Assembly (NCBI GenBank): GCA_965237675.1 | Contig: OZ250150.1 | Coordinates: 2,432,001-2,496,000, forward strand | DNA from: Candidatus Latescibacterota bacterium | GTDB taxonomy: Bacteria; Latescibacterota; UBA2968; GCA-2709665 | DNA: 64,000 bases | Direction: 5' to 3' | In this document: positions 33,701 through 49,378 of the stretch, one piece after another | Numbering within the stretch: position 1 is the first letter of the stretch | Layout of the letters: each line of letters starts with the position of its first letter | Notes under the pieces: model-generated | Databases searched by the model: none | What the model was told of the DNA's origin: nothing | The model's input: only the letters and a program-made list of their open reading frames with translations | Made by a program: the position numbers and the translations under genes

Positions 33701-34313
33701 AGCCGAAGTCCGGATTCCGGTTGGAACGGCTGCTGCCGATCAGGCCGAATGCAAAGGGCATGCTGTTGTGCGAGGACTTGAGGGTAATGTGGTGGGTAAG
33801 CTCGTGCGTGAAGACGTCGCGTACCCAATCGTGGGTGCCTCGCGAGTCCCAGTTCAGCGGCGAGGCCCCGAACGTGATGACATTGCCCAGATAGAAGGAG
33901 GATGCGTTACCCAGAATATCTATATCGGAAACGAGCACGTGAATCGGGGCATACCGTTCTATGGAGCCCGGGTAGTGGCTGGATATTCTCTCGAAGATGT
34001 CGTCCGCAATCTCCGCAATGCGACGGGCCGTATTCTCGGCTTCGGCGTAATAGATGGCGAAGTACCTGGTGCGGATTGCGCGGGCGCCGGGCACGCGAAG
34101 GCCGAGCAGGGCGGGAAAGAAATGCTGCTCGTGTCTATCCCAGGTGTAGTCGGGCATGGTGCGGTTCAACGGCACGTCGGCAATGTCCACCGTTGGGCCG
34201 TTCTTGAACCTTCTGGGAATTTGCTGGGCGTCGGAAGGGAAGGGAAGGGCAGACCAGAGGATGACCAGGATCGCACTTGGAAGGAGGATGGACAGGTTCG
34301 CTGATCGGCTCAC
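30747..34313 (-). CDS. Secreted fusion: zincin (clan MA) peptidase, TolB/PD40 beta-propeller, C-terminal Omp85/BamA-like barrel
   Basis: GTG start after GGAGA, signal peptide; HELTH...WFTEG; SPDG repeats; YYLGG..TLRGY barrel loop motif; ends IYFGLTI. Confidence 0.78.
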   Translation of the reverse strand: MSRSANLSILLPSAILVILWSALPFPSDAQQIPRRFKNGPTVDIADVPLNRTMPDYTWDRHEQHFFPALLGLRVPGARAIRTRYFAIYYAEAENTARRIAEIADDIFERISSHYPGSIERYAPIHVLVSDIDILGNASSFYLGNVITFGASPLNWDSRGTHDWVRDVFTHELTHHITLKSSHNSMPFAFGLIGSSRSNRNPDFGFFLPLYHSAMPNWFTEGIAQFEARKHGDDRWDTHRDMLLRMATLENDLLSYTDMGVFGKDGFKSEQVYNQGYAFLNYLAETYGPDSVRAMSRERPIINFKSAVKKSTGISASRLYDEWTEHLDRKYGALADSIRASGEREGELLSDRGDVEHFPTYSPDGTKMAFISNEGSDYAFMEILVMDLTTRRMTKVARSRKYGKYVNLPFSWTPDGNSLVYSKSVSGNWDIFVYDLIARKERRLTVGLRGRDPAVSPDGTKIAFVGNRDGTSNLGVLNIDGTEVRYLTNNNNGTQYYTPRWSEDGSRLLFSIFRGEDRDIAVINADATPRPKKTDKKKTEKVVLAERIAARKKAETEVDSAQAEADSLALSEAARRDSMVAFPDSLAFANNAGFEVIINTTADERDPVWLPGGGGILFASDRTGIFNVYAFDLATGRQEQLTNVIGGAFSPSVSPRGDEILYSGYRAANFNIYRIRKSDAVAAAPADSLARDYSSIYKGKKIGDLFNTGRYAPRLASIGVVPIVVLGPTFIGNRFGLDQLSAGAEATWGDLMGSDNIYAGFTVGKNLKKGVDLNSKFSAFYTKGLPAVHTEDRTYAPRIYIGASQQTINSLIDRGIVNSRRDTTSGTLQIVIDDTLRLVPGVTSFTNLSLTEEDRYKNLFKDFVVGVETSVGRRQVLSLSYGHRRYQESTYIKQVILDSTRLVQNRNGEITDITDQIPGLGEDEVVFDDFLYRDLGFFKSNDLTAGWRYINFLPAKDSFVNPSRGRAITLRYRRINATVTDSLFQTQLNPDGVAAPTYRSDQAQLGINEYIVSWNEFIGLPGRATLALQAFLAYKDRPIKDVQANTTSAEGVFYYPLRYYLGGIGTLRGYPYFSSSGGKAMLARASLTFPILKNAAKELPPFHFDKIYGVLFVETGATGNFESLRVLLDSDDRFNRSAFLSDWGFEIRMQMFANYRLPLYGYFQMAFPTRERIQGVDIDRSRIYFGLTI

Positions 34314-34453: not shown

Positions 34454-35443
34454 TCAGGCCGTGGGGAGGTGCTGCCGGGTCCGCAGAATACAGGCGACGC
34501 TGTGGTTTCCGCCGATTTCAAGCAGTTCCGGCACGATCCTTGTGCATGCGTCTTCACGCTCGGGGCAACGGGGATGGAAGGGACATCCTTGAGGCACATT
34601 GGAAGGGCTCGGCACGTCGCCGGTGAGTACGGTGCGTTGCTTTTTGACGCGCGGGTCCGGCTCGGGGACGGCCGAAAGCAGGGCGCGGGTATACGGATGT
34701 TCCGGTTCGTTGCAGAGGGTGCGGCTGTCTGCGATCTCCACGATACGCCCCAGGTACATCACGGCGATGCGGTTGGAGATATGTCTGACAACGCTCAGGT
34801 CGTGCGCGACAAAAAGGTAGGTGAGGCCGAACCGGGCCTGGAGATCCTGGAGAAGATTGATGATCTGCGCCTGTATCGAAACATCCAGCGCGGAAACGGG
34901 TTCGTCCGCAACGATGAATTCGGGATTCACGGCCAGGGCCCGAGAAATGCCGATTCGCTGGCGCTGGCCCCCGCTGAATTCGTGGGGATAGCGGCGGGCG
35001 TGGTCGGGACGGAGGCCCACCGTATCGAGGAGTTCGGTCACCCGTTCCCGCGTGTCGCTTCCATCGGTGAGTCTGTGGATTTTCAGCGCTTCGGCCAGCA
35101 TCCCGCCCACGGTCATTCGGGGGTTGAGCGAACTGTACGGATCCTGGAAGATGATCTGCATGCGGCGCCGTACGGCGCGAAGTTCCGAGCGGTTGAGGCC
35201 GAAAACGTCGATGCCGTTGAAGACCACACGGCCCGCGGTGGCCTCGATGAGCCGGAGGATCGCTCTTCCCGCGGTGGTTTTGCCGCATCCGGATTCTCCC
35301 ACGAGACCCAGGGTCTCGCCCCGGTTGACGGTGAACGAGACCCCGTCTACCGCCTTGACCTGGCCGACGGTGCGGGAGAAAAGGCCGCGCGTAATGGGGA
35401 AATGTTTTTTCAGGTCGTGGACTTCGAGCAGTGGTTTGGACAT
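34454..35443 (-). CDS. oppF: Oligopeptide/dipeptide ABC transporter ATP-binding protein (OppF/DppF)
   Basis: [37 protein letters not shown]. Confidence 0.93.
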
Positions 35444-35444
35444 G

Positions 35445-36443
35445 TCAATCCGATCGCGTCGCGGGAGATGGGTATTCTTCGGCCATCCAGCAAGCCACGA
35501 GGCGGTTGCCGGCGGTCGGTTCCATGCGCGGCTCGTCCGTGTCACATATGTTCTCCGCCAGCGAACACCGGGGTGCGAATCGACATCCGGCGGGAAAACG
35601 AGTCGCATCGGGAACGCTGCCTGGAATGACGGATAGCCGGTTTTTCTCCTCGTTGAGTTTGGGTATCGATTCCAGCAATCCTCTTGTGTAGGGGTGCCGG
35701 GGGTCGGCGAAGATTTCATCCACCGTTCCGGTTTCAACGATTTTTCCGGCGTACATGACCGCCACGCGGTCCGCAACTTCCGCAATGACGCCAAGGTCGT
35801 GGGTAATCATCAGGACGGCCATCCCGAATTCTCTCTGAAGCCGATCCAGGAGTTCCAGAATCTGGGCCTGAATGGTCACGTCCAGCGCCGTGGTGGGCTC
35901 GTCGGCGATGAGCAACTCGGGATTGCAGGAGAGGGCCATGGCAATCATCACCCGCTGGCGCATGCCGCCGGAAAGCTGGTGAGGATACTCGTTTGCCCGC
36001 TGTGCGGGATCCGGAATTCCAACCAGATCGAGCATTTCGACCGTCTTGGCCCGTGCGGCGCCCTTGCCCAGACGCTGGTGGAGCCTGACGGCTTCGTCAA
36101 TCTGGTCCCCGCATGTGAAGACAGGGTTGAGGCTGGTCATCGGTTCCTGGAAAATCATCGCAATGTCGTTGCCTCGCACGCTCTGGACGGCGGTTTCGTC
36201 CAGACCAAGCAGATTCCGCCCGTTGAACCGGATCTGTCCCGAGACGATTTCGCCCGGTGGTTCGGGTATCAGACGCATAACGGACAGAGACGTGACGCTC
36301 TTGCCGCATCCGGACTCTCCCACCAGGCCCAGGGTTTCCCCCTTTTTCAGGGTGAAGGAAACCCCATCCACGGCTTTGGCGACGCCGCCGTCCGTATGAA
36401 AGTACGTCCTTAGATCTTCGACGGTCAAAAGAGGTTCCGACAT
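35445..36443 (-). CDS. oppD: Oligopeptide/dipeptide ABC transporter ATP-binding protein (OppD/DppD)
   Basis: [37 protein letters not shown]. Confidence 0.93.
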
Positions 36444-36555
36444 AAAGCCGACCCTATTTTGAAAATGCGTTCATTTCGGATGCGCCGCGCACCCGGCCGA
36501 CGCGCGGGTTCGAACGGGACACCCCCGATGTTCGATCAACCAGTCCCCTGCCGGG

Positions 36556-37299
36556 TCAGAAAAGCGGCGGATTCAGATTCAGCCAATCTTTCAGGAGAAA
36601 ATCCACGCGGCCGATGAGCAGGGAGATGCGCGCCATAACGGTATAACCGAAAGAGGCGCCGAATGAAACCATGAGGAAATAGATGCCTACCCGGGAGACG
36701 CCGCCGACGATTCCCTTATGCTCGACCGAGAAATAGAAGTAAATCAGCACACTCAACACGCCGATCAGGATGATGGCCGGGTTCAGCACAGCCCAGCCGA
36801 AGTCCGCCGATGCCTGCGAAAACGGACGGATTGTGGGTCCGATCTGCTCGATGATGAAGGAGGCGACGCGCCGGGGGATGGCCAGGCCGGCGCCGAGACC
36901 CACGTAAAAGGCAAAGGAGATGCGGCTGAGCCAGACGGCCCTGCCGAAAAGTCGGGTCATCAGGAAGAGACCCAGGCCGGCCGGAACGATCACCCACCAT
37001 CTGACGCCCGTGCCCGGCACTGGACGAAAGAGGGGGTTGATGACGTCCAACAGGATGCTCTGATACCAGACCACGGCGAGTTCGTAGGCGGCAACAACGC
37101 CGACGTAGAGATGCTCGGCCAGTTTGAAGAGAGAATTGTCTCTGTACAGGAAGCTGTAAAGAGCGAGCGTGACGCCTGCGGCGAGGATAATCCCGAAACC
37201 CGACCAGCTTGCCTCCAGGTCGCCAGCAGCCAGCAGATACCCATTTGCGGCGGCAAAAAGCAGAATGAAGATCGGAAAGACGATGTGATCCCTGTCCAT
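36556..37299 (-). CDS. Conserved hypothetical integral membrane protein of the glmL-like cluster
   Basis: About 7 TM helices; YSFLYRDN.LFKLAEHLYVG and FLMVSFGASFGYTVMARISLLIGR. Confidence 0.85.
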   Translation of the reverse strand: MDRDHIVFPIFILLFAAANGYLLAAGDLEASWSGFGIILAAGVTLALYSFLYRDNSLFKLAEHLYVGVVAAYELAVVWYQSILLDVINPLFRPVPGTGVRWWVIVPAGLGLFLMTRLFGRAVWLSRISFAFYVGLGAGLAIPRRVASFIIEQIGPTIRPFSQASADFGWAVLNPAIILIGVLSVLIYFYFSVEHKGIVGGVSRVGIYFLMVSFGASFGYTVMARISLLIGRVDFLLKDWLNLNPPLF

Positions 37300-37311
37300 G
37301 CCGGTGTCCTT

Positions 37312-38139
37312 TTACGTACGCGAGGCGCCGCGGTGCAGAAAGAAGACGACGTTGCCGAGCAGAATAAATCCGATGATGACTATGTGGGCGACGGACTGGG
37401 GGCGCATGCCGCTGACCGCCAGTCCTCTCTTACCCACCAGGGCTTCGTATTCGGCGGCTCCTGCGAGCCCGCCGATGAGGCCGTTGAGCTGCCGGGACTG
37501 GAGGAAGGGAAAGAAATCCGGCGCCATCACGGCGGTACACCCGGCTCCAAGGGCGAACCGGTATCGTTCTTGCCCGTACGCGATCCATTCGTCGACACCC
37601 GGAAACCCGGCGGCCAGGTCGATCACGTAATCGAAATCCTTCAGCGAGCGAAGATTTCGCGCAATGGGCATCTCCAGGGTGGAAACGCCCCGGATGTCTT
37701 CGGGAAACGTGCCGTGCAGATCCTGGCCCATGTTCAGGATGAGGATCGGACCGCCGGCCTTGAACCCCAGAAACGCATAGTCCGTACCGTTAACCCGGCC
37801 GTATTCCGCCGCCGCCGTCTCAAAAGCCTGCATCGCCAGCCCCACGGCTTCGGTGATGAGGGTCACGCCCACCACACGGATGTTTCGGCTGAAGCAGTGT
37901 CGCAGAATGGCCAGGGCCATGGGCTGGAGTTCGGGCTGGGAGCTGGGTCCATAGTCGAAGGAGATCAGCATGACAGCATCCGGCTTTTCGGCCAGGCTTT
38001 CCACGGTGTCGTAGACGGCGCGTACGTTGGGCGTGGGCTTTATTGGCAGTTCGAAGTCGATGAGCAGAGGGATACATACGGCCAGGAAGACGGCCACGTA
38101 GACGATGCGACGGTCGATATTCAGGAGGCGCTCGATCAT
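37312..38139 (-). CDS. DUF6754-like membrane protein (TM - alpha/beta domain - TM)
   Basis: ATG 38139 overlaps the upstream TGA (ATGA) with a GGAG RBS; DYGP..QPEL.PM, GL.GAAEYE, QS.AH. Confidence 0.8.
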   Translation of the reverse strand: MIERLLNIDRRIVYVAVFLAVCIPLLIDFELPIKPTPNVRAVYDTVESLAEKPDAVMLISFDYGPSSQPELQPMALAILRHCFSRNIRVVGVTLITEAVGLAMQAFETAAAEYGRVNGTDYAFLGFKAGGPILILNMGQDLHGTFPEDIRGVSTLEMPIARNLRSLKDFDYVIDLAAGFPGVDEWIAYGQERYRFALGAGCTAVMAPDFFPFLQSRQLNGLIGGLAGAAEYEALVGKRGLAVSGMRPQSVAHIVIIGFILLGNVVFFLHRGASRT

Positions 38140-38792
38140 TTCCCCTCCTCTCCGAGATAGGAACGTTCGATGCCGAAGATGATGCGCAGGGCCGTGGCGA
38201 TGGCGCCCAGGCTCACGCCCAGGAGGATGCCGCGGCGGGCGGCCAGGTTGGGGGTGGCCATCAGCCATTGGGAGACGGCCGGCAGGTGTTCCGAAATCAA
38301 TGCGCCAATGGGTACCCGGCCCAGCATGACGAGTACGGCGGCAACAAGGAGAACGACGGCCTCGGCCGACCGGGCGCGAAAGGTGCGGTAGGCGGCGGAC
38401 GCGATGAAAAAGGCGAGGAGAGAGAACATGGTGGCCCCGCCGGCCACGTGGATGTGGGTATACATCCAGTTCAGATCCAGACCGTCGCCCTTCGCCATTG
38501 GCTGCAGGGGCCCTTGCCCGTTGTTGTAGACGGCCAGTAGGGTCGTGACGATAAACCCGATGTAAACAACGGCGCTGAAAGCCCACCCGGCCTGTTTGCG
38601 CTTGACGCGGTTCCAGTGCATAAGCAACAGACTGTGGATGCCCAGAAACAGGGCGAAGGCCGCAATGATCCGGACCCAGGTTGAGGTCGTGATTTCAACC
38701 GGCCGCGCGACGGGAATGTAGTAGGTGAATATGCCGATGATGCCGGCTACAAAGGCCACGAGCAGCGGCAGTGTGCGTTGCAGGAAATGCAT
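38136..38792 (-). CDS. Conserved hypothetical integral membrane protein of the glmL-like cluster
   Basis: About 6 TM helices; FFIASAAYRTFRARS.EA, RGILLG..LG.I.TALRII.GIER. Confidence 0.85.
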   Translation of the reverse strand: MHFLQRTLPLLVAFVAGIIGIFTYYIPVARPVEITTSTWVRIIAAFALFLGIHSLLLMHWNRVKRKQAGWAFSAVVYIGFIVTTLLAVYNNGQGPLQPMAKGDGLDLNWMYTHIHVAGGATMFSLLAFFIASAAYRTFRARSAEAVVLLVAAVLVMLGRVPIGALISEHLPAVSQWLMATPNLAARRGILLGVSLGAIATALRIIFGIERSYLGEEGK

Positions 38793-38846
38793 TCGGGTTT
38801 CTCCGTACGAAATGGAGGCTTGAATGTGGGCGAATTGTCGACGACG

Positions 38847-40031
38847 TCAGCTCAGGACCGGCCAGAAGCCGATGCCGGCCAGTATCGAACCGAGCGCCAG
38901 AATAAGGATCAGGACTCCCTTCCCCAGGTCCTGGCCCTTCAGGCTCCCGAGAAGCTTGGGATCTCTGGAGAGATAGGCGCTGGCGGCGTAGAGTTCCTCC
39001 CCCATCAAGGTGTAGTCGCAGGTCGTGATAAAAAACGGAAGCTGCGTGTAGGCATCCGTTGCGGCAATCTGGATGGCGCCGGTCGTGGCGCCGGTTTCCG
39101 CAAGGAGCAGGGATTCGGCATAGAAATAGCCCATAAAAAGATTGGCTGCCGGCTTCTCCCGCACCATCATGCCGTCGAGCGCCGCCGCGTAACTGAATTG
39201 ATCTGCGGCCGCCAGAAAGACATCGTCCGGGTTGAATGCATCCGGACGGCCTGCTTCGATACAGGACTCTTTGACCACTTCCTGGCTCACGGACATGACG
39301 ATCGGATCCCGGTTGCCCACCCTGAGCTGGGTATCGTATTCGGCGGTTCGCCTGGCCACCTGGCCAAGAATATTCACGGCGGCGATGGTGGAAGGGCTGC
39401 CCATATCCTGCAGGCCGTGGATGAAAAACACCGGTTTTCCCATTTCCGTTGCCCGGCCGAGCGCCTCGTCCAGGGCATCCAGACCGGCCAGCCGGCGGAT
39501 GTACAGGGTCTTGTGGCGGGCAATTCGGATATAGACGAGGATCGTGATCGAAAAGAGCGCCGCCAGCACGAAGTTTTCGAATTTGGTCCAATTGAAATAG
39601 TTGCCGTGCGCCCGGGCGCGGACATCCGTATGTCCCGCGCCCGGGATTTCGACGCGTATGATGTACGGCGTGTTGTTCTCGAGCCGGATCCTGTCCTGTC
39701 TGTCCGGAACGCGGTAGGATTCAACATGGGCGAAATGGCGGTTGCGGTTCTCCTCGCTCCGTCCGAATGTAGCCGGTTCGTCGGACGTCAGGGGAGCGGT
39801 TTTCGCATCCAGTTCCGCGACGTCATAAAAGGGAGCGGTCTCCGATTCGGCGACGGAGATGCGATATCGTGCGTTGTCCGGTAGCATATCGGGCCGGCGC
39901 CAGGTGAGCGTGATGCTGTGTCCCTGGTCGTTGGGCGTATCGAAAGCGAGGACGTCGGCGGGTACCGGATCCGCGGCGAAGGCGGGCGCGGCAGCGATGA
40001 ACAGAGCAAGAAAGAGCACTAAATGCGCCAT
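38847..40031 (-). CDS. Fibronectin-III-like plus DUF6754 domain protein
   Basis: Signal peptide, DTPNDQG.SI.L.W (FnIII-like), TM, IRRLAGL.ALDEA.GRATEMGKP, LPFFITTCDYTL.GEELYAASAYLS. Confidence 0.82.
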   Translation of the reverse strand: MAHLVLFLALFIAAAPAFAADPVPADVLAFDTPNDQGHSITLTWRRPDMLPDNARYRISVAESETAPFYDVAELDAKTAPLTSDEPATFGRSEENRNRHFAHVESYRVPDRQDRIRLENNTPYIIRVEIPGAGHTDVRARAHGNYFNWTKFENFVLAALFSITILVYIRIARHKTLYIRRLAGLDALDEALGRATEMGKPVFFIHGLQDMGSPSTIAAVNILGQVARRTAEYDTQLRVGNRDPIVMSVSQEVVKESCIEAGRPDAFNPDDVFLAAADQFSYAAALDGMMVREKPAANLFMGYFYAESLLLAETGATTGAIQIAATDAYTQLPFFITTCDYTLMGEELYAASAYLSRDPKLLGSLKGQDLGKGVLILILALGSILAGIGFWPVLS

Positions 40032-40088
40032 TGCGGGTCTCCTGGCGGTCTTATACGGGCGCGCCGGCGGTCGGGCTCCGGACACACG

Positions 40089-41210
40089 TTACGCTTCGAT
40101 CCTTTCGGCGTTCGCGCGGGGTATCACGGCCTGTTGTCCATTCTCGAACCGAACTTTCAGGACGCGGACCCGGATTTCCGATTCGACGGCCGCCAGTTCG
40201 GAAGGCAGGGCGGTGACCACACCGGTTTTTCCGAAATAGGGCGCCCGGATCGTACGGATCGGATCTCCAATGGAGAGGCCTTCCCGGTCGGCGGATTCCC
40301 TGGCGGCGGTCGGACCTCCGAGGCTTGGAACGATGATTTCCGGACGAAGAACGCCGGCCCGGATCTGGGTTGCGCCCGAGATCGAAGCTTCGTCGCCGTT
40401 CCTTTCGTTCAGGATGTCAAAGGTCTTCCGGGCCATGGCGATGTCGCCGAAACCCTCTGTGACCACGACGGTGAGGCCGATTTCCTCGGTGCCGGTGATG
40501 GCCACGCCGAGGTCGTAGCCGAGCAGGTTCCGCAGATCGTGGTCGCGAATGCCTCCGCCGATAAGGCCCGCCGCCCCGATTTCCCGCGCTTTCCGAATGA
40601 GCTCGAGGGTGACGAGGCCGCCGGCGATGAGAATTTTTCCGGCGCACGCGGCGTCGATCCGTTCTTCCGAGAGGCGCTCGTCGGGGGTTGCGGCAAGCAC
40701 GTGGATCGCGCCCCAGCGCTCGCCGCCGATGCCGAAAATGCCCTGCAGAAAGGCGCCAACGGTTTCGATAACGACCCCTTCGCCGGGAATGGTTTCAACA
40801 ACGGCGCCGTCCACGTAGGCCATGACCTGCACGGGACGGGGCGGGCCCCGCAGGATGACCTGCCCGGTGACGGGCGATACGCTCTCCACGGTGCCGGAGA
40901 TGGGCGACGCCACCGTGGTTCTGAACCACTTGATAAACGGCCGGGTCTCGGCAAGGGGTTCCCCGGCCTCGACAGGCTCTCCCTCCTTCCTGAGCATGAA
41001 GGTCGGGAGTTCGTCGGGGGTGACCCCCAGCCTGTTTACCAGGTTCAGGGTGGTCACGTCGCCGGGCAGATCGGTCCGGGCCACGACCTGGTCGCGCTGT
41101 ACCGATTCGCCTGCTGAAGCCAGCACCTCACCGGTGAGTGGGAGCTGGCGTCTTTTCCGAATGGTCGCCCTGCGGGTGACGCGCAGGCCGGGGGTGTATG
41201 TATGCGCCAT
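40089..41210 (-). CDS. Conserved hypothetical protein with barrel-sandwich hybrid motifs and a C-terminal KOW/SH3-like domain (373 aa)
   Basis: Start MAHTYTPGL; GE.V..GE.LA...SPISGTV; QGIFGIGGE; TEGFG; TQIRAGV.RPE; IGD.IR.IR.PYFG..G.V. Confidence 0.85.
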   Translation of the reverse strand: MAHTYTPGLRVTRRATIRKRRQLPLTGEVLASAGESVQRDQVVARTDLPGDVTTLNLVNRLGVTPDELPTFMLRKEGEPVEAGEPLAETRPFIKWFRTTVASPISGTVESVSPVTGQVILRGPPRPVQVMAYVDGAVVETIPGEGVVIETVGAFLQGIFGIGGERWGAIHVLAATPDERLSEERIDAACAGKILIAGGLVTLELIRKAREIGAAGLIGGGIRDHDLRNLLGYDLGVAITGTEEIGLTVVVTEGFGDIAMARKTFDILNERNGDEASISGATQIRAGVLRPEIIVPSLGGPTAARESADREGLSIGDPIRTIRAPYFGKTGVVTALPSELAAVESEIRVRVLKVRFENGQQAVIPRANAERIEA

Positions 41211-41284
41211 GGGTTCAGGGTTTCGCGGGTGGCATGCCGTCTCGTTGTCCCGCCAGCTCCGACAATTGGCGGGTGGCTCTCTTC

Positions 41285-42355
41285 TCAGACCTTCATCTTC
41301 GGATCCAGGGCGTCTCGAAGGCCATCGCCAAGCAGGTTGTAAAGGGTTACAGTGATAAAGATGGCGAAACCGGGTACGATGACCAGCCACCAGGCCGCGA
41401 AATTGCTCCGTGCGCCGGCAAGGATCGCGCCCCAAGTGATGGCCTCCGCGGGTACGCCGATGCCGAGAAAACTGAGGCCGGATTCCGCCAGAATGGCGCC
41501 CGCCACCCCGAAGGCCGCCGGGATCAGCACTGGCGCAATGGCGTTGGGCAAAATGTGGATGAACATGATCCGGCCGCTGGAATAACCCAGACTCTTGGCC
41601 GCCGAAACAAAGTCGTAGCTTCTCACCTGCAGGAATTGCGACCGCGTGAGCCGGGCGATGCCGACCCAACCTGTGAAGCCGAGAATGATCATCACGAAGA
41701 AGAGGCTGGGCGGGAAAAAAGCGGCTACCGTGATGATAAGAAAGAGGGCGGGGATGGCGGCCCAGAGTTCGAACAGACGGGAGAGAATCAGATCGGTCCA
41801 GCCCCCGAAATAGCCAGCCAGCGCGCCCAGGGAGACGCCGATGATCATCGAGATCGCTACCGAGACCAGGCCGATGGTCAGCGCGTATCGGGATCCGTGA
41901 ATCAATCCGGAAAGTACGTCGCGGCCCAGCCGATCCGTACCCAGAAAATGCGTCGTGCCGGGCGGCTGGTACTTTTCGCCGAGATTGACGTCGCTGGGAC
42001 CATAGGGGACGGGCGGAAAAATGGCGTATTCGGACCTGAGGCGTTTGAAGTTTCTTTTTCTCCTGAGTGGCGCCGGCCAATCGGCCAGTCCGAGATAGAC
42101 GGCGTACTGGCGAAAGGCCGGGAAATAAGTCTTTCCCCGGTATTTCATATAGTAGGGTTTGTTGCCCGCGAGGCAATCCGCGAACACCGCCGTCAGCGCG
42201 AGAACGCAGATCGCCGCCAGGCTGAAGAGGGCCGGGCGATTTTTTTTGAACTGCCGCCAGACCAGCTTCGAATAGGTCTGGCTCTCCTGGACAGCGTCGG
42301 GTTCGGGCGTTCCAGGGTCCGCTTCGGGGTGATCGCGCGTGGGACCGTCGGCCAT
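41285..42355 (-). CDS. oppC: Peptide ABC transporter permease (OppC/DppC)
   Basis: VWRQFKKNR, LGTDRLGRD, EAA-like FVSAAKSLG, HILPN, GDGLRDALDP. Confidence 0.93.
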   Translation of the reverse strand: MADGPTRDHPEADPGTPEPDAVQESQTYSKLVWRQFKKNRPALFSLAAICVLALTAVFADCLAGNKPYYMKYRGKTYFPAFRQYAVYLGLADWPAPLRRKRNFKRLRSEYAIFPPVPYGPSDVNLGEKYQPPGTTHFLGTDRLGRDVLSGLIHGSRYALTIGLVSVAISMIIGVSLGALAGYFGGWTDLILSRLFELWAAIPALFLIITVAAFFPPSLFFVMIILGFTGWVGIARLTRSQFLQVRSYDFVSAAKSLGYSSGRIMFIHILPNAIAPVLIPAAFGVAGAILAESGLSFLGIGVPAEAITWGAILAGARSNFAAWWLVIVPGFAIFITVTLYNLLGDGLRDALDPKMKV

Positions 42356-42359
42356 AGAT

Positions 42360-43661
42360 TTATCCCTGCGAACGAGAAAACTCGATGCGCGGATCCACGA
42401 CTTTCAGGAGGATGTCCGCAAGCAGAATGCCCAGCAACGAGAGGACCGAACCGATGGTCAGAATGGCCATTACCATGGGATAGTCTCGGACGAGCACGGA
42501 TTGAACGCCCAGAAAGCCCAGACCCGGAATGGTGAAGATGGTCTCGATGAAGACCGAGCCGGCAATGATGGCCGGAAGCAGATTCGCCAGGATGGTCACG
42601 ATGGGGATCAGGGAGTTGCGAAAGACGTGCCTGAGAATCACGATCTTCTCAGGCAGGCCCTTCGCCCGGGCGGTGCGCACGTAGTCCAGCCTGAGATTTT
42701 CCAGCATGCTGGTTCGCATGAAACGGGAGAGGCCCGCGAAGCTGGCATAGCTGGAGGCCAGTACCGGCATGGCCATGTGATGGGCGTGGTCGGTTAACAG
42801 CCGCCAGAAGCCCCAGTCGGAGGAGGCGTCCAGGGATTGGATGCCCGAGGCCGGAAACCAGTAGAGGAATTCCCTGTTGCAGAAAAACACGATGAGCAGC
42901 ATGCCAACCCAGAACGAAGGCATGGACCACAGGATGAAGGTTCCGGTGGTAAGTGTGCGATCGGTCCGCGTGTCCTGTTTGACAGCCAGCCAGATACCGA
43001 GCGGGAGTCCGATGAGATAGGCGATGATCAGGCTGATGATGTTGATTTCAATGGTGATGGGAACCCGGGCCAGGATATGTGAGATAACCGGTTGCTGATC
43101 TTTGAAAGAACGACCGAAATTGAGCGTGACAAAGCGCCGGTCGAAGAGATGGAAGAGCAGCAGGCCGGCGCCGGTATACTCGTAGTTGTTCTCGAGCTTG
43201 ACGGTTTTGCTCTCCCAGAAAGACGAAAGGACGAGCATCTGCGCCTCGTCCGGGTGATATTTCTCGAAACTGCGAAGGAACCGCGCTTTCCGCGCCTCGT
43301 TTTCCAGTGCGGCCAACGCACTTCGTTCCTCCGGGCCCAGTTCCGCGAGAAAGAAGTCGACTCGCCTGCCCGTGCGTTCGTAGTTGTTCAGTGGCTCCAC
43401 GTGAAGAACCAGGCTCGATAACCAGTTCAGGTACTGGATGTGCAGCGGCCTGTCCAGGCCGAGTTGGTGGCGCAGTTCCTGCCGCGTTTTTTCGAAATCG
43501 GACTTCCGGTCCGTCGAGATGCCCTCCTCTCCCGCCATGCCTCCGAGAAAAAAGTCCACCGGGTCTCCCGGCGCGAGGTGCATAACAAGGAAAGAGATGA
43601 GGGTGATGCCGATCATCGTCGGGATCATCAGCAGGCTGCGCTGCACCATATATCGAATCAT
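42360..43661 (-). CDS. oppB: Peptide ABC transporter permease (OppB/DppB) with an enlarged periplasmic loop
   Basis: LAPGDP, GLDRP...QY..WL, DYVRTARAKGL, RH..RNSLIP, RDYP, DPRI. Confidence 0.93.
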   Translation of the reverse strand: MIRYMVQRSLLMIPTMIGITLISFLVMHLAPGDPVDFFLGGMAGEEGISTDRKSDFEKTRQELRHQLGLDRPLHIQYLNWLSSLVLHVEPLNNYERTGRRVDFFLAELGPEERSALAALENEARKARFLRSFEKYHPDEAQMLVLSSFWESKTVKLENNYEYTGAGLLLFHLFDRRFVTLNFGRSFKDQQPVISHILARVPITIEINIISLIIAYLIGLPLGIWLAVKQDTRTDRTLTTGTFILWSMPSFWVGMLLIVFFCNREFLYWFPASGIQSLDASSDWGFWRLLTDHAHHMAMPVLASSYASFAGLSRFMRTSMLENLRLDYVRTARAKGLPEKIVILRHVFRNSLIPIVTILANLLPAIIAGSVFIETIFTIPGLGFLGVQSVLVRDYPMVMAILTIGSVLSLLGILLADILLKVVDPRIEFSRSQG

Positions 43662-43740
43662 GTCGTTTCAGACCTCACCGTCCGGACGTCGGTGCATCGG
43701 GAATCGAGAAAAGATGCGGTTCTACCCGGCGGCCCCCGGG

Positions 43741-45582
43741 TTATTGATACAGCCGGTTGCCCGCGCCCACCCACCATTCCTGGGTGTCCGCGCCAATGGC
43801 ATACCAGCTGTCGCCTGTGAAACGCCTGCTGTAGGATATGGCGTTGCGGGACTTCCAGAGGAACGTATAGGGTTGTTCGTCGTACAGGATTTCCTGAAAT
43901 CGCCTGTACAGTTGAATGCGTCTATCCACATCGAATTCCTTGCGGTAGGCTTCCAGGATGCCGTCGACTTCGTCGTTCTTGAAACCGATGTAATTCGAAC
44001 CCTGGCCCTCTGCCTGCGAGGAGTGCCAGATCTGGTAGGAATCCGGCGGCAGGTGCAGGCTGCCGGTCCACCCCAGGGTACAGGCGGCGAAATCCTTTTT
44101 GCGAACGACCCGGTCCAGAAATATGGTCCAATCGAGTTCGCGCACGTCGCAGACGATTCCGATGTCCTGAAGTTCATACTGCAGAGCCAGGGCGATGTCT
44201 TTCCGAAGCTGGTTGCCGGAATTGACCAGGAATTCAAATTTGAAGGGTCTTTTCTCGCCGTCGATGGTCTTATCCAGGACGCCGTCGTTGTCGGTATCGG
44301 CCCAGCCGGCCTCCTCCAGCACGGCGAGCGCTCTGTCGGGGTCGTAGGCGTGGGGTTCGAGGCTGTGGTTGTATTCGGGCCGGAATTTGTGAATGGGCCC
44401 CTCAACGGTTTCCGCCAGGCCGAACATGAGGTTCAGTACCATGCTTTCTCGGTCGGTGAGGTACGTCATGGCTTTGCGTACGCGCTTGTCGCGAAAGATG
44501 GGGTGCGCGTTGTTCCAGCCGATGTACACGTACCCCGAAGAATAAACCACGCTCTTTTTAAATCGGTCTATAAAGTCCGGAGACCAGCTCTTGTCTTTGA
44601 ATTGCAGGGGACTGAGCCCGAAGTAGTCGATGTTCCCGTTCGTGAGTTCGATAAACGCGGCCTCCTGGTCGTTCACGATCTTGAAGACGATTTTCTCCAC
44701 GTATCCCTTGTGCATCAGATCAGCGCGGTCCCTTCCCCAGTAGTTGGGGTTGCGGGTCAGTATAACCTTCTGCCCCGTGACCACGTCGTCTTCCCAGGTT
44801 TCCACGAGATAGGGCCCGGAGCCCAGCATGCTTCGGTGGTATCCGGTGTTGAATTTCTCGGCAAACTGCTGCACACGCTCGGCGTGCGGGCCGCTTTCCC
44901 AGGAGCCGTCGATCAGGCTTTGTATGTCGACAGGGTCCAGCAGGCCGTCGGGGTCGTAGAAGTGTCTGGGAAGAATCTGCATGCTGCCCAGGGAGATGTT
45001 GTTCCGGAAGTAGGGTTCCCGGCAGACGAAGCTGATTCTGTATTTGCCCTCCCGCTCGACGTCGCTGATGACCGCGTAATAATTGCGGAGCGAGGCGGCC
45101 AGAACTTTCGGGTTCTTGATGACCTTGATGCTGAAGAGGACGTCGTCCGCCGAAAGCGGCTTGCCGTCGGCGAAATGGACGTCCTCCCTCAGGTCGAAGG
45201 TGTAGGTGAGCTTGTCTTCGGATACCGTGGGAGGCCCTTTTGCAACCAACCCTCTGAGTTTATAGGGTAATTTGTTCTCGATGTCGAGGAGCGATTCGAA
45301 GACGTACTGATGAACCGCGGAGGCGCCGGAGTCGTTCGAGACGTAGGGGTTGAAATTCTCCGGATCCGACAGGAAATGGCGAACCATCCAGTCGCCGAAT
45401 TCCGGTTCGGCGTCGCCGGCGTACATGGCGGGCACTCTTTCCGTTCCCTCCAGAACGATCGCTGCGTCTTCCCGTGTTTCCATCAGCGTGCGCTGAACCT
45501 TCTGCCAGGGGTTTTCCCCCTTGCATGCGACCGGGAGGAAGTACAACAACCCGAGGATTGCCAATCCGCGCCCATTAGCCAT
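43741..45582 (-). CDS. oppA: Peptide ABC transporter substrate-binding lipoprotein (family 5)
   Basis: AAGGAGG RBS before ATG 45582; lipobox LPVAC; YTF.LREDVHF.DG.P.SA.DV, GSGPY, DKRVRKA. Confidence 0.9.
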   Translation of the reverse strand: MANGRGLAILGLLYFLPVACKGENPWQKVQRTLMETREDAAIVLEGTERVPAMYAGDAEPEFGDWMVRHFLSDPENFNPYVSNDSGASAVHQYVFESLLDIENKLPYKLRGLVAKGPPTVSEDKLTYTFDLREDVHFADGKPLSADDVLFSIKVIKNPKVLAASLRNYYAVISDVEREGKYRISFVCREPYFRNNISLGSMQILPRHFYDPDGLLDPVDIQSLIDGSWESGPHAERVQQFAEKFNTGYHRSMLGSGPYLVETWEDDVVTGQKVILTRNPNYWGRDRADLMHKGYVEKIVFKIVNDQEAAFIELTNGNIDYFGLSPLQFKDKSWSPDFIDRFKKSVVYSSGYVYIGWNNAHPIFRDKRVRKAMTYLTDRESMVLNLMFGLAETVEGPIHKFRPEYNHSLEPHAYDPDRALAVLEEAGWADTDNDGVLDKTIDGEKRPFKFEFLVNSGNQLRKDIALALQYELQDIGIVCDVRELDWTIFLDRVVRKKDFAACTLGWTGSLHLPPDSYQIWHSSQAEGQGSNYIGFKNDEVDGILEAYRKEFDVDRRIQLYRRFQEILYDEQPYTFLWKSRNAISYSRRFTGDSWYAIGADTQEWWVGAGNRLYQ

Positions 45583-45606
45583 CGTTTGCCTCCTTGTGAT
45601 GCCTAA

Positions 45607-45878
45607 CAGCCCGTTGAAAAAGTCCATCCGGTCTGCGGCCGGCTCTTGTGGCCGAATTACTGCGTTGCGCTCCCTCCCCGAATCCCCCGATTCGGCTCGG
45701 TCATGCGCCTTGTCTTCGGTCACAATGGCAAGTGTTCTGTCCCGGAAATAGATTGCCGAAATTCGGCCGCCGAGCGATGGAAACGCAGCGAGACGGGATG
45801 AATCGGCGGATGAATGGTGACATATTTCTGGGACGGGACACTATACCTCGCCTGCAGAGCAACTTTTTCAACGGACTG
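45607..45878. mobile_element. MITE (272 bp) with a CTAA target duplication, IS5/IS1182-like ends
   Basis: Terminal repeats CAGCCCGTTGAAAAAGT and ACTTTTTCAACGGACTG; CTAA at 45603-45606 and 45879-45882. Confidence 0.85.
45731..45842. mobile_element. Nested 112-bp miniature element inside the 45607 MITE
   Basis: Inverted ends AGTGTTCTGTCCCGGAAATA and reverse complement AGTGTCCCGTCCCAGAAATA (17/20); the right half recurs at 61447-61507. Confidence 0.75.
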
Positions 45879-47663
45879 CTAATGATGAGGATAAAGGCCC
45901 AATGCCCTGTTCCAGCCGGCAATCCGCCCGGCTCGATCCGCGTCCGAAAATGGAATCGGCCGGCCACGTCCGTCCAGAATCAGGCCGGCCACGCCGCCCT
46001 TCACGGCCTGGCGAATTGTCTGGCCCGGACCCGCCCCGCCATCCCAGCCCGACTCGGGATGCAGGGTGACCGCGGCCTCGTGGCCGGGGGCCACGTGGAA
46101 CATGCGCAACGCCCCGACTTTCAGTTCGCCGGACTCTGTGCGGTCGGAAAGGTCAATTTCGTACGCCGCGCAGACTTCGCCCGGCTTTCCCTGGCCGGCG
46201 GGGGCAACGCAGGTTCCCAGATCGACCAGGCAGTCCCGTTCAAATACCTCTGCGGCCGCCTGTTCATTGACGCTTGTGAGGACGCCCAGGTGGGGCATCA
46301 TGAAGATGCTGTCAACGGCCAGTCGGGTAAATCCCCGGGGCTGGAAGGCGTCGATGAGCATAGCCGCCGACTGCGCGCGGCGGGGCGCGTGAGAAAGAAC
46401 ACCGCCGCTGCCCACCAGGAGATCCAGGTCCGGCATGTGAATCAGACTCTCGCCAGCGCCGGTTTGGTCGAACGCGTCGGAGAGGGTGCGTTCCGTCTGC
46501 ACGCCCTTGAGGCCAACGGCCAGGGCGCGGTGCTGTTCGAACGCCAGGCGCAATGCCTCGCGGGCGATGGCCTGCTCGAGTTGTAATTCCTCGAGCGTCT
46601 GGGGCACGGTCGTCGGACGGATCATCTTGTTCTTGACCCGGTCCCGGAGGTCGGCTTCTTCGATTTCGAACGGCACCCAGCGCATCACCTTCGCCAGGCC
46701 GGCCTCGGCCAGCACGTTGGAGATACTGTATGACATGCCCAGGTTGGCGCTTACGGTACGGTTGAATCGATCGCCGAAGACACTGAAAACATCGGTGGTC
46801 GCTCCACCAATGTCCACGCCAATGACGTTGATGTTCCGGCGCCGTGCCACGGCCTGAATGAGCAGGCCGACCGCGCCCGGAGTGGGCATGATGGGCGCGC
46901 CCGTCCATTCCATCAGTTTGCGGTACCCGGGCGCCTGCGCCATCACGTGTTCCAGGAAGAGGTCGTGGATAACCTGGCGCGCCGGCCCAAGATTCTCGCG
47001 TTCGAGTTGCGGCCGGATATTGTCCGTGATTTTCAGTGCGGTTTTTTCGCCCAGGACCTGTTGAACGTCCTCCCGGGCGTCTTTGTTTCCGGCATAGATC
47101 ACCGGAAGCCGGAAGCCGGCGCCGAACCTGGGTTTTGGGTCGGCCGCGGCGATGAACTCGGCGAGTTCCACAACGTGGCTCACGGTGCCGCCGTCCGTTC
47201 CGCCGGAAAGGAGCACCATATCGGGCCGTAATTGGCGGATGCGTTCAATTTTCTGGTGGGGTAGGCGGCCGTCGTTGGATGCAAGGACGTCCATGACGAT
47301 GGCCCCCGCGCCAAGGGCCGCTCGCTGGGCGCTTTCGCCTGTCATTGCCTGGACAACGCCGCCTACCATCATCTGGAGGCCGCCTCCGGCGCTGCTGGTC
47401 GACACATAGATGTCAACGCCGCGGCTGCCCTCGGCTGGCGTGATGATGCGTTCCCCGTCCAGGATGGCGCGCCCGGAGAGTTCTTCGATTTCCTGGATGG
47501 CGTTGAGTACGCCCCGGGTGACGTCTTCAAACGGAGCTTCGACCGTAGTGGGCGCCTCGCCGCGACATGTCTGCCGGTAGCACTCCCCTTCTTTCTCTAT
47601 GAGGATGGCCTTGGTGGTGGTGCTGCCGCAGTCTGTGGCGATGATGACGTCCGGTCTATCCAT
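45879..47663 (-). CDS. Glutamate mutase L (GlmL/MutL)-like actin-fold ATPase
   Basis: TDCGSTTTKA, SSAGGGL, AALGAGA, GGTDGG, MPTPGAV, VDIGGATTDVFS. Confidence 0.88.
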   Translation of the reverse strand: MDRPDVIIATDCGSTTTKAILIEKEGECYRQTCRGEAPTTVEAPFEDVTRGVLNAIQEIEELSGRAILDGERIITPAEGSRGVDIYVSTSSAGGGLQMMVGGVVQAMTGESAQRAALGAGAIVMDVLASNDGRLPHQKIERIRQLRPDMVLLSGGTDGGTVSHVVELAEFIAAADPKPRFGAGFRLPVIYAGNKDAREDVQQVLGEKTALKITDNIRPQLERENLGPARQVIHDLFLEHVMAQAPGYRKLMEWTGAPIMPTPGAVGLLIQAVARRRNINVIGVDIGGATTDVFSVFGDRFNRTVSANLGMSYSISNVLAEAGLAKVMRWVPFEIEEADLRDRVKNKMIRPTTVPQTLEELQLEQAIAREALRLAFEQHRALAVGLKGVQTERTLSDAFDQTGAGESLIHMPDLDLLVGSGGVLSHAPRRAQSAAMLIDAFQPRGFTRLAVDSIFMMPHLGVLTSVNEQAAAEVFERDCLVDLGTCVAPAGQGKPGEVCAAYEIDLSDRTESGELKVGALRMFHVAPGHEAAVTLHPESGWDGGAGPGQTIRQAVKGGVAGLILDGRGRPIPFSDADRAGRIAGWNRALGLYPHH

Positions 47664-48003
47664 TCAGTCGGTTTTCCGTCTCCACGAGAGAATCGATCAG
47701 CGTCTGCACACTCTGCCGCTTTTCCAGAAAACGCACGAATCGATCATATTCCACGTTTGAGAAGATAAGGGTGACAAAGGGTGAAAGAAAAGTCAAAAAC
47801 TGACTGCCTATAAAGTTGAACGGCCGGCTGGCTTCCAGCACCATCAACGCGGGTGTGGTCATTTGGCGCCGAACCACAAAATTTGCAACTTTCGACGCCA
47901 GATCCCGGTCTTCTCGCGCAATGCGATCTTCCGGCGGATTGACGGCGAAAGCGTATTCGCACCAGGCCCTAAGGCGCCGAATCCGTGAGGCGGGTTTGCA
48001 CAT
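47656..48003 (-). CDS. Conserved hypothetical protein
   Basis: VVRRQMTTPAL..LE..RP.NFIGSQ...F..P; overlaps both neighbours as in an operon. Confidence 0.75.
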   Translation of the reverse strand: MCKPASRIRRLRAWCEYAFAVNPPEDRIAREDRDLASKVANFVVRRQMTTPALMVLEASRPFNFIGSQFLTFLSPFVTLIFSNVEYDRFVRFLEKRQSVQTLIDSLVETENRLNG

Positions 48004-48409
48004 AGTCGATGACCTCGTCCCGATTTGCGCGAAGACGCAGAAAACAGCCTCGAAACGGGTCGAGCCGGTGGGGGCTGGCGAATGGGCTGAGAAAGACACC
48101 GTCGGGTAAGACGGAATGACGGCGAATCCGGCTCCAGGGAATTGTGCGCCGCGTGCCCAGGTGGGCAATCAGGACGGTATTCTCCTGCAGCGCGTATCGC
48201 GTGGGCAGAAAGTAGCGGGACATCGAGGCCGTGAGCAGCACGGCCGACAGGAATCCGTATGCGGGCGTGTTGAAGGCAATGCCAACGAGAATCGAGAGCC
48301 CCAGGATGATGAGGATGAGCAGGATCGTCTTCACCGGCGGTTCGTCCCGGAGGGGATGGACGGTCCAGCGGAGTTCGGAGGCCGTTGGAGGGGGGTTGGG
48401 TTTGTCCAT
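47969..48409 (-). CDS. Hypothetical 2-TM protein with a PH-like (YcxB-like) C-terminus
   Basis: LRWTVHP, two TM helices, YFLPTRY, LSPF..P.RLD.FRG. Confidence 0.75.
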   Translation of the reverse strand: MDKPNPPPTASELRWTVHPLRDEPPVKTILLILIILGLSILVGIAFNTPAYGFLSAVLLTASMSRYFLPTRYALQENTVLIAHLGTRRTIPWSRIRRHSVLPDGVFLSPFASPHRLDPFRGCFLRLRANRDEVIDYVQTRLTDSAP

Positions 48410-48502
48410 GCTTTCGGAACAATCGAACGCGCGGGACGATCGGGATGGCTTGCGGCGTATCCGCTCGCCGGCGGGAAATGAAACCACAACCGGAACCGGT
48501 TT

Positions 48503-49378
48503 TCAGATGATGCGTCGGACGATCCGGGGTTCCTCAGCCCGGTCTCCGAAGTTCCAGGCGTCCGTTCCGTACTTTGTCTCGATGAGATGTTCGGCGTCTG
48601 ACTTTTCTTCCGAAGTCAACGACGAATCAACCAGGGCGATGTCGAGGGTTTTCTCAAAGCCGTCCCGCAGGGCCCTCGCGACGGTGTTGAAGTCTGCGGG
48701 TTGACCGGCTTCCGTCAGGGAAATGGTATGGCGGTCCAGTTGCCGTCGAAAGCGTTCTTTCAGGACCTTCCCGCGGTCCGGCATGAGGTCGATCAGGCGC
48801 TTGTGTTCCGGGCCCAGAAGCAGCGATCCGTGTTGAAGCAGCATGTCGCCAAGACGTCGCTGGGCGCTGCCAATGATTTTCTTCCCCTTAAGCGTTACCT
48901 CGTACTGCGTGGTGCTTGAAAAACAGGGTGACGTCAGAACCTTTCCGCGCGGCGATGAAACGGGATTGCGGCGTGGCTCGAATTCCGCGGCGACGCCGAG
49001 GCGTCGCAGGCCCGCAACCAGGCAGGTGCTGATGTTTCGGTAGGAATCCTGAATGGTGCCGCCCAGAAGGGGGTCGTCCGCCCGGCACAGGACGCTGTAG
49101 GTGAGTTCGTTCCAGTGGAGAACGGCACGTCCGCCGCTTGGACGGCGGACGAGGTGGATGCCCCGCTCCCGGCATCGTTCCGGGTCGACTTCACGACCGA
49201 TGCGCTGGGCGTAGCCGAAAGAGACGGCGGGCGGCGTCCAGCCGAATGTCCGGACCGTGGGCGGTGCGGTTCCGCTCTCGACGCGCCGCACAATGGCTTC
49301 GTCGACCGCCATATTGAAAAAGGCGTCAGCAGACCGGGTGTTCAGGAAACGCCATTGATGGGATCCGGGCTCCTGCAT
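48503..49378 (-). CDS. Lipoate-protein ligase / octanoyltransferase (LplA/LipM family)
   Basis: NMAVDEA, RRPSGGRAVLH, KIIGSAQRR, LQHGS. Confidence 0.9.
   Translation of the reverse strand: MQEPGSHQWRFLNTRSADAFFNMAVDEAIVRRVESGTAPPTVRTFGWTPPAVSFGYAQRIGREVDPERCRERGIHLVRRPSGGRAVLHWNELTYSVLCRADDPLLGGTIQDSYRNISTCLVAGLRRLGVAAEFEPRRNPVSSPRGKVLTSPCFSSTTQYEVTLKGKKIIGSAQRRLGDMLLQHGSLLLGPEHKRLIDLMPDRGKVLKERFRRQLDRHTISLTEAGQPADFNTVARALRDGFEKTLDIALVDSSLTSEEKSDAEHLIETKYGTDAWNFGDRAEEPRIVRRII

Follow-up and report, generated by a model that had tools for sequence, protein, structure and literature searches.

A 64,000-nt stretch of a Candidatus Latescibacterota bacterium genome (contig OZ250150.1, positions 2,432,001 to 2,496,000; the window) carries a run of 14 minus-strand genes that appears, from its sequence and that of its relatives, to hold two evolutionarily separable things: a complete Opp peptide importer (system A) and a conserved, uncharacterised two-module system (system B). 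The core of system B is seven genes, eight with the small membrane-protein gene h146, and Opp is its lineage-restricted neighbour. We hold it moderately probable that system A is an ordinary Opp importer, that system B is a widespread two-module ATP-driven inner-membrane machine, and that the opp genes were inserted into or around it in one class of Latescibacterota.

Conservation of system B across lineages

The conserved unit is colinear in the order h146-h115-MutL-p373-DUF6754-tm218-p275-tm247; the cytoplasmic-side module consists of h115, an actin-fold ATPase of the MutL/GlmL family (MutL) and a soluble adaptor-like protein (p373), with h146 as an accessory member in some lineages, and the membrane module of the last four genes. 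Proteins of the window were compared by tblastn with 20 loci from 11 Latescibacterota families and with 80 DUF6754 loci, the latter being the best of at least 589 confirmed DUF6754 relatives from a conserved-peptide scan of one genome per GTDB species, in which at least 589 of the at least 594 matched stretches were confirmed. The two sets share genomes (L034 is L019, and L035 is L025) and are therefore not independent; gene starts there are heuristic, and taxon labels are the titles of public records, some of them clearly doubtful (e.g. an 'Enterobacteriaceae' metagenome-assembled genome, or MAG, for L078).

MutL, p373 and the four membrane genes lie on the same strand in 47 of the 80 loci; eight others have the membrane module only, with enough upstream room to show the remaining genes, and 25 are cut by contig ends, which leaves the full colinear unit in 47 of 55 assessable loci. 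All 47 full loci contain h115, always directly 5' of MutL, and 17 of them give a tblastn match to h146 upstream of h115. Labels among these best 80 loci are Latescibacterota, Nitrospira or Nitrospirota (the largest group), Scalindua, Brocadiaceae and Anammoxibacter, Methylomirabilis, Planctomycetota and Phycisphaerae, WOR-3, Edwardsbacteria, Stahlbacteria and Binatia, and longer DUF6754 proteins also bear the names Eremiobacterota, Vulcanimicrobiota, Armatimonadetes and Cloacimonetes. The names on close homologues are Latescibacterota, and the Nitrospira proteins retain ~61-71% (MutL), 48-57% (p373) and 42-56% (DUF6754) identity to those of the window. This gene-neighbourhood survey thus finds the homologues syntenic elsewhere, with system B colinear across lineages. 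The preliminary description, made from the letters of the window, had suggested that peptide-fermenting anaerobes have similar gene sets. The survey does not bear this out, as sampling of carriers is best for Nitrospira, anammox bacteria and Latescibacterota, although some relatives are named Cloacimonadota.

The genes of the two modules also co-occur by genome. DUF6754 was found in each of 41 close relatives and, almost always as one match per genome (224-426 bits, mostly 350-426), in 143 of 168 genomes of Latescibacterota; 14 control genomes had none. p373 (E<=1e-20) is present in 141 of the same 168 genomes; 139 have both and 23 neither, and the six discordant genomes, all 58-89% complete, have either DUF6754 only (G083, G127, G041, G072) or p373 only (G126, G069). 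The spread is patchy, with 8 of 61 evenly sampled Nitrospirota positive and 0 of 16 in Latescibacterota families f8, f9 and f10, which lack both DUF6754 and p373. The modules stay together in genomes even where they are unlinked. Five genomes (two WOR-3, one Edwardsbacteria, one Stahlbacteria and one unlabelled) have a lone membrane module; p373 is encoded elsewhere in all five and MutL elsewhere in four, and h115, MutL and p373 stand together in two of them.

Natural fusions join MutL to p373. A search for longer proteins that contain p373 gave 59, of which 57 have the MutL domain PF13941 (53 of these are 949-1022 aa long); in the 57 protein clusters p373 is joined to the MutL C-terminus, and Marinisomatota and Cloacimonadota are among the lineages with fused forms. 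P0127 (996 aa, 7 contigs), for example, aligns with MutL over residues 11-600 (61% identity) and with full-length p373 over residues 619-991 (49%). Colinearity, genome co-occurrence and these fusions sustain the original proposal that the genes other than opp are an undescribed conserved unit that includes the ATPase. A common fusion of p373 with DUF6754 was considered and rejected: only P0121 (one contig) was found, its DUF6754 part stops at the equivalent of window residue 285, and it is possibly an artefact, since a fusion of this kind is absent from all 120 longer DUF6754 proteins listed. In L073 and L101 one cytoplasmic module is accompanied by two membrane modules in tandem, L086 has the beginning of a second membrane module, and in L095 and L106 two tandem membrane modules lie with no cytoplasmic module next to them.

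Clustering of the open reading frames (ORFs) that flank the 80 loci yielded no further family recurring across phyla. A Memo-like gene (PF01875, E 2.5e-42) lies directly 3' of tm247 in 25 Nitrospira-labelled loci (e.g. L054:11964-13214), and Latescibacterota loci of family f4 share TonB-receptor-like and PorV-like proteins.

Genes of the window and their predicted products

The gene run was mapped from an ORF listing and a start-codon table, and families were assigned with Pfam and NCBIfam (Table 1). All 14 genes are on the minus strand, in the place and order first described, within a single minus-strand run from 51535 down to 30747 that comprises FabF, RNase III, the 14 genes and a 1188-aa exported protein. 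Many of the genes overlap or abut, as had also been described: the overlaps are 35 nt (h146/h115), 8 nt (h115/MutL) and 4 nt (tm218/p275), the short gaps 4 nt (oppB/oppC), 12 nt (p275/tm247) and 1 nt (oppD/oppF), and the widest gaps 296 nt (MutL/oppA), 112 nt (tm247/oppD) and 93 nt (ligase/h146). Between p373 and DUF6754 the gap is 3 nt, or 57 nt with ATG 40031 as the DUF6754 start, probably the true one because of where the orthologues start. Terminator-like sites were not clearly above shuffles (26 against 18.4 +/- 5.0), nor were promoter sites, and scans of the window gave no Rfam match and no tRNA. None of the eight system-B proteins matched a PADLOC family at E<=0.01, so that system B is not placed among known or candidate anti-phage defence systems.

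Table 1. Genes of the cluster and its 3' neighbour, with window coordinates
Product	Coordinates	Strand	Family or basis
LplA-like lipoate/octanoate protein ligase, 291 aa	48503-49378	-	PF21948 (LplA-B_cat), E 2.9e-36
h146, small membrane protein, 146 aa	47969-48409	-	no family match
h115, small conserved protein, 115 aa	47656-48003	-	no family match
MutL/GlmL-family ASKHA (actin-fold) ATPase, 594 aa	45879-47663	-	PF13941, E 9.7e-131
OppA, family-5 solute-binding protein	43741-45582	-	SBP_bac_5, PF00496, E 1.1e-75
OppB permease, 433 aa	42360-43661	-	BPD_transp_1 + BPD_transp_1_N
OppC permease, 356 aa	41285-42355	-	BPD_transp_1 + OppC_N
p373, soluble adaptor-like protein, 373 aa	40089-41210	-	no Pfam match at E<0.01
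DUF6754 protein, 412 aa	38847-40085	-	PF20539, E 8.2e-114, residues 160-406
tm218, polytopic membrane protein, 218 aa	38136-38792	-	hydropathy
p275, 275 aa	37312-38139	-	hydropathy + charges
tm247, polytopic membrane protein, 247 aa	36556-37299	-	hydropathy
OppD ABC ATPase	35445-36443	-	ABC_tran + oligo_HPY
OppF ABC ATPase	34454-35443	-	ABC_tran + oligo_HPY
1188-aa exported protein	30747-34313	-	PD40 (TolB-like) repeats, E 2.7e-25; Peptidase_MA_2, E 1.2e-5, below cut-off

Six of the system-B proteins (h146, h115, p373, tm218, p275 and tm247) have no Pfam or NCBIfam match at E<0.01. On the cytoplasmic side, h146 has at least one transmembrane (TM) helix by hydropathy (residues 28-46), and alignment of h115 reveals the conserved motifs HAFAV and P..FLES..PLNFIGSQ. 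MutL covers the whole PF13941 profile (positions 1-450 of 450) with its residues 7-478 and carries a C-terminal extension of ~115 aa past the Pfam domain, while it stays under all NCBIfam cut-offs (GlmL 238.2 bits against 475, Or-4 218.8 against 600, and glmL_fam 177.3 against 204). In an alignment of 16 sequences from several phyla its mean column identity is 72%, and the motifs DCGSTTTK and DIGGATTD, which we take to be the ASKHA phosphate motifs of MutL, are invariant. In light of the full-length domain match, the invariant phosphate-type motifs and this identity, the ATPase looks competent and strongly constrained. No solved relative of MutL was detectable in the PDB by sequence or profile. 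Two MutL matches, G171:C33:26609-28372 and G172:C55:3292-5061, each hold one in-frame TAA, which could reflect a match running past the gene end, a sequencing error or something else.

The architecture predicted for p373 is an N-terminal barrel-sandwich hybrid, a middle alpha/beta domain and a C-terminal KOW-like region. RnfC_N and Biotin_lipoyl each match 13 of 16 orthologues at E<=1, and NQRA_N matches 6 of 16, all below cut-offs; in several of 10 longer relatives RnfC_N, NQRA_N and Biotin_lipoyl rise above the Pfam cut-offs, and KOW does so only in P0282. KOW-type profile matches in the PDB (NusG, Spt5, uL24) are marginal (E 0.0014-0.2), and the middle region has weak RraA- and PA-like similarity, the RraA-like PDB match being at E 0.017. 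The label 'barrel-sandwich/KOW' given to this protein holds at the family level. Conservation of the N-terminus begins with the first residues. The longer relatives (435-475 aa: P0229, P0240, P0249, P0281, P0282, P0309, P0310, P0312, P0320 and P0327) have ~80 additional residues near the N-terminus, which in several of them suggests a duplicated barrel-sandwich domain (two separate Pfam regions in P0309 and P0312). An N-terminal PilZ domain precedes p373, above cut-off, in P0047 (E 1.5e-14) and P0113 (E 6.3e-11), and PF07238 is listed for P0071, so that such fusions account for 3 of 120 near-length homologues listed. Of 1.84 billion cluster representatives, 3398 belong to the family at E<=1e-3, a number that falls to 2366 at E<=1e-10 and to 1066 at E<=1e-30.

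An LplA-like ligase adjoins the system in three distant lineages, namely the clade of the window, an unlabelled MAG (L101:17164-17955), where it directly follows the second membrane module, and Edwardsbacteria (L118:6373-7101), where it lies 2 kb from p373; it is context, not core, of system B. The candidacy of p373 as a lipoyl or biotinyl carrier for this ligase was rejected, as there is no conserved modifiable lysine: residue 90 is Arg or Lys (Arg in the window) and residue 94 is Lys, Gly, Ser or Arg.

Topologies of the membrane module were predicted with a hydropathy script and charge bias. The DUF6754 protein is a clear member of PF20539 (379.5 bits against a cut-off of 27) and would consist of a signal peptide, a periplasmic Ig/FnIII-like domain, a TM helix, the conserved cytoplasmic alpha/beta DUF6754 domain and a further TM helix. 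The FnIII label attached to it at the outset is weak for the window protein, fn3 being found in 2 of 18 orthologues (best E 0.008); in longer relatives fn3 is among the precomputed Pfam domains. p275, whose start at 38139 is preceded by GGAGAGGAGGGG, had been called DUF6754-like, a label that falls away (hhalign probability 0.6%, no Pfam match); its orthologues gave chance-level matches only against Pfam at E<=1. It probably has a cytoplasmic N-terminus, a TM helix, an alpha/beta domain of ~215 aa, predicted to be periplasmic, and a second TM helix. Hydropathy gives tm218 ~6 TM helices, with both ends predicted cytoplasmic, and tm247 four helices above threshold and likely more. Conserved motifs are FRAR, GRVP and GIERSYLGG in tm218 and YKDNP..AEH, WLSR and FGASFGYTVMAR..LLIGR in tm247, and in the alignments the membrane borders carry strongly conserved charged motifs. 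Searches found no Pfam, NCBIfam or PDB relative for tm218 or tm247, no homology between the two (hhalign probability 0.35%), and no significant PDB match for DUF6754 by sequence or profile. Two tandem copies of p275, 60-63% identical to that of the window, occur in an otherwise single membrane module in L025, L035 and L036 (family f3, genus g13).

The Opp importer and its linkage to system B

System A has every part expected of a PepT-family importer, an SBP_bac_5 protein, two BPD_transp_1 permeases and two ABC ATPases with oligo_HPY, all over cut-offs. The OppA start (ATG at 45582) is preceded by AAGGAGG, and an LPVAC motif makes the protein probably a lipoprotein. Permease and ATPase genes are separated by five genes, p373 to tm247, as had been noted; neither these nor MutL has an ABC-system Pfam match, all of them occur without opp in 67 of the 80 loci, and they are not assigned to the transporter.

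Linkage of opp to system B is limited to one class of Latescibacterota, where it takes two different arrangements. An opp-like gene on the cluster strand is carried by 13 of the 80 loci, of which 11 are Latescibacterota and the others L053 and L112, and 67 have none. The opp-like genes of L053 and L112 are 48-59% identical, the level of within-genome paralogues, and by a rough estimate their proximity is about what chance gives for an abundant family. In one arrangement, MutL-[oppABC]-p373..tm247-[oppDF], OppABC lies between MutL and p373, as in 4 of the 20 loci (L014, L019, L020, L021) and also in L033 and L034; oppDF and the 1188-aa gene follow tm247 in 6 of the 20, and also in L033-L036, L038 and L045. 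The 1188-aa protein, whose C-terminal ~400 aa have no domain match, is encoded 3' of oppF wherever a relative has oppDF at the cluster (L013, L014, L019-L021, L025, L033-L036, L038, L045). In the other arrangement, [oppA]-cluster-[3 outer-membrane genes]-[oppBC], seen in G128 (family f4, genus g25), the OppA orthologue is directly upstream of h146, the OppBC orthologues (68% and 78% identity) are 8.6 kb downstream of tm247 beyond three outer-membrane-type genes, and OppDF is 1.38 Mb away. In G102 (f4, g21) a contiguous oppABC lies ~420 kb from the cluster.

Of the 20 loci sampled from 11 families of Latescibacterota, 8 have MutL immediately next to p373. Families f7, f11, f13 and f14, and most of f4, show this direct contact of the two genes. 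Elsewhere the junction holds a Type ISP restriction-modification gene with PIN, DUF433 and Uma2 genes (G022, L013:1519-7886) or a CopG antitoxin gene (L036:7872-8686), and thus behaves as an insertion site. A further ~1.9 kb of sequence separates the oppB and oppC orthologues of G017 (L020:5563-7441).

It had been proposed that these genes encode an ATP-driven membrane machine functionally tied to peptide uptake or catabolism. The conserved ATPase-containing unit stands, whereas a general tie to peptide uptake is not supported, since system B mostly occurs without opp, the opp linkage is lineage-confined and the junction is insertion-prone. Nor is the linkage unique to this genome, given the second arrangement in f4 g25 and the retention of OppDF next to tm247 in several Latescibacterota; a lineage-specific functional connection to Opp in this phylum is possible.

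A proposed membrane machine and its alternatives

In the mechanism that we favour, the DUF6754 protein, tm218, p275 and tm247 would assemble into one complex in the inner membrane. This complex would reach into the periplasm with two parts, the Ig/FnIII-like ectodomain of the first protein and the alpha/beta domain of p275, and would offer the DUF6754 domain as a platform on the cytoplasmic side. On this platform h115, the MutL ATPase and p373, together with h146 in some lineages, would dock, and the docked module would couple ATP hydrolysis to the work of the membrane module. For that work we favour the movement of some substrate across the inner membrane; force transmission to the periplasmic domains is a close alternative, and signalling a weaker one. 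OppABC and OppDF would most likely make up a normal importer, its genes merely sharing a transcript with system B.

Several observations weigh against this scheme. To our knowledge no transporter is driven by an ASKHA-fold ATPase, so that the favoured mechanism is without precedent. Transporter-type internal repeats were not detected in tm218 or tm247 when half was compared with half (probabilities <=1.5%). The DUF6754 ectodomain differs among relatives (fn3, PQQ beta-propellers, HEAT repeats), and such variability fits a receptor, a scaffold or a force transmitter no less well than it does a transporter. In G168 (1.4 Mb), one of the five genomes with unlinked modules, the search gave no MutL. 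Within Latescibacterota, one group of Opp orthologues is interwoven with the cluster in both of the arrangements above, and OppDF is next to tm247 in G022, G173, G174 and G175, where no OppA or OppB orthologue was found (for OppB the best identity is 32-34% in three and there is none in G175; for OppA there is none at E<=1e-40); accidental neighbourhood does not explain these arrangements and the lone OppDF well. A bolder scheme, which we offer tentatively, would make system B a new class of primary membrane machine, distinct from the ABC, P-type, F/V-type and AAA+ classes, with an actin-fold motor acting through a barrel-sandwich/KOW adaptor, and recruited to or co-opted with Opp in one Latescibacterota class, where OppA and OppDF may work with system B in place of OppBC in genomes that lost OppBC.

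Other explanations differ in what they make of the same genes. That the non-opp genes are an accessory Opp machine for peptide processing, gating or sensing, working only with peptide uptake or catabolism, would fit the interleaving of one Opp orthologue group in several genera and in both arrangements, the OppDF genes that follow tm247 without OppA or OppB orthologues, and the Peptidase_MA/PD40 protein 3' of oppF in these relatives. It is nevertheless unlikely, as most of the 80 loci lack opp-like genes and L053 and L112 reach only paralogue level, MutL abuts p373 in several families, the oppABC of G102 is far from the cluster, the MutL/p373 junction also accepts restriction-modification and toxin-antitoxin genes, and the flanks share no family from phylum to phylum. 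An envelope machine that transmits force or serves as a scaffold, of the FtsEX/MacB or MreB-MreC-MreD kind, in which the actin-fold ATPase, possibly polymeric, and p373 drive or position the bitopic proteins and the periplasmic domains act on envelope partners with no transport, is rather doubtful. For tm218, p275 and tm247, Pfam and NCBIfam showed no relationship to FtsX/MacB or MreC/D, nor to any other Pfam family; the neighbourhood contains no recurrent periplasmic enzyme or outer-membrane partner, and we know of no evidence that GlmL-family proteins polymerise; on the other side are the two predicted bitopic proteins with sizeable extracytoplasmic domains, an ectodomain that varies by lineage while the TM and cytoplasmic parts are conserved, an ATPase as strongly conserved as we would expect of cytoskeletal or core-machine proteins, retention of the system in small genomes (1.4-2.6 Mb) and the lack of detectable transporter-type repeats.

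We consider a transmembrane sensor or signalling complex very unlikely; here a cue in the periplasm would be sensed by the variable ectodomain and passed on by the DUF6754 domain, p373 and the ATPase, with c-di-GMP input in some lineages. The joining of a variable ectodomain to a conserved cytoplasmic domain and the PilZ fusions of p373 speak for it, but those fusions are rare, none of the eight proteins matches an output-type family (kinase, cyclase, DNA-binding) in Pfam or NCBIfam, and seven conserved proteins, two of them polytopic, would be heavy equipment for the purpose. It is scarcely credible that the MutL-like protein acts in the manner of GlmL, as the chaperone or reactivase of a B12-dependent mutase, with unrelated membrane genes as neighbours. 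The full-length PF13941 match and the automatic name 'glutamate mutase L' on fused relatives would be as expected, yet the protein scores below all three NCBIfam cut-offs, its gene keeps the same order with p373 and the membrane module from phylum to phylum and also occurs fused to p373, and the only Met_asp_mut_E matches of the genome are two fragments (C1:260,917-261,503) ~2.2 Mb from the window and beside a MutL fragment of their own. The stretch G000:C1:260917-261855, in which the Met_asp_mut_E (profile 77-214 and 380-434) and MutL (19-74) fragments lie side by side, looks like a decayed canonical glutamate-mutase locus.

Comparison with described systems bears on both parts of the cluster. 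OppA, B, C, D and F are all present and intact here, as in Opp/Dpp (PepT) importers, but the opp genes of the window are split by p373 to tm247 and preceded by MutL, those of relatives are split otherwise or partly missing, and the genes of system B belong to no described Opp system. MutL shares its PF13941 ASKHA domain end to end with GlmL/MutL of B12-dependent glutamate mutase and with Or-4 of ornithine degradation (NF040745, NF040744), from which it differs by its sub-cut-off scores, its C-terminal extension and a p373 that always follows it or is fused to it; in the window its neighbours are h115 and oppA, not glmS or glmE. p373 resembles RnfC and NqrA, the peripheral subunits of Rnf and Na+-NQR, in its predicted N-terminal barrel-sandwich domain, which exceeds the RnfC_N or NQRA_N cut-offs in some relatives only, and in being a soluble subunit encoded just upstream of membrane subunits that include a bitopic one with a periplasmic domain. 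The barrel-sandwich domain is widespread, and these matches are therefore not specific; no Pfam match was found to the later RnfC/NqrA domains, the Rnf-Nqr membrane subunits, FMN_bind or NADH/Fe-S domains, nor was a cofactor motif, and the resemblance is one of architecture only. ECF transporters and type VII ABC systems (FtsEX, MacB, LolCDE) provide a working analogy, with periplasmic working domains on bitopic or polytopic parts, and the tandem-duplicated membrane modules suggest, as in the ECF case, that a single energising module may supply either one membrane module or two; the window ATPase has, however, an actin fold where theirs is the P-loop ABC fold, and no sequence relation was found. 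Pfam holds DUF6754 (PF20539) only as a named domain of unknown function.

In the full-text literature, supplementary files being outside its scope, no paper was found that describes system B, and none on DUF6754, on PF13941 or on GlmL together with Nitrospira; in the portions available of PMC4682846 and PMC4389238 (glutamate mutase L/GlmL) and PMC7203096 (Latescibacteria), nothing appears relevant to system B. For five Nitrospira protein clusters (h115, p373, tm218, p275 and tm247), all named members are 'hypothetical protein', except for two called 'biotin carboxyl carrier protein' in the case of p373. As far as we know, the function of the GlmL-type ATPase is unsettled even in glutamate fermentation. 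If the preferred reading of system B as an ATP-driven inner-membrane machine is true, a seven-gene system with an unusual motor has been overlooked in organisms of the nitrogen cycle (nitrite-oxidising and comammox-type Nitrospira, the anammox bacteria Scalindua and Brocadiaceae, and Methylomirabilis) and in many uncultured phyla. System B would then add four families of membrane protein to those known and put a GlmL-type ATPase to a new use, and the natural MutL-p373 fusions offer concrete, testable sub-complexes of it. For annotation, the 'split opp operon' seen here is two systems, not one.

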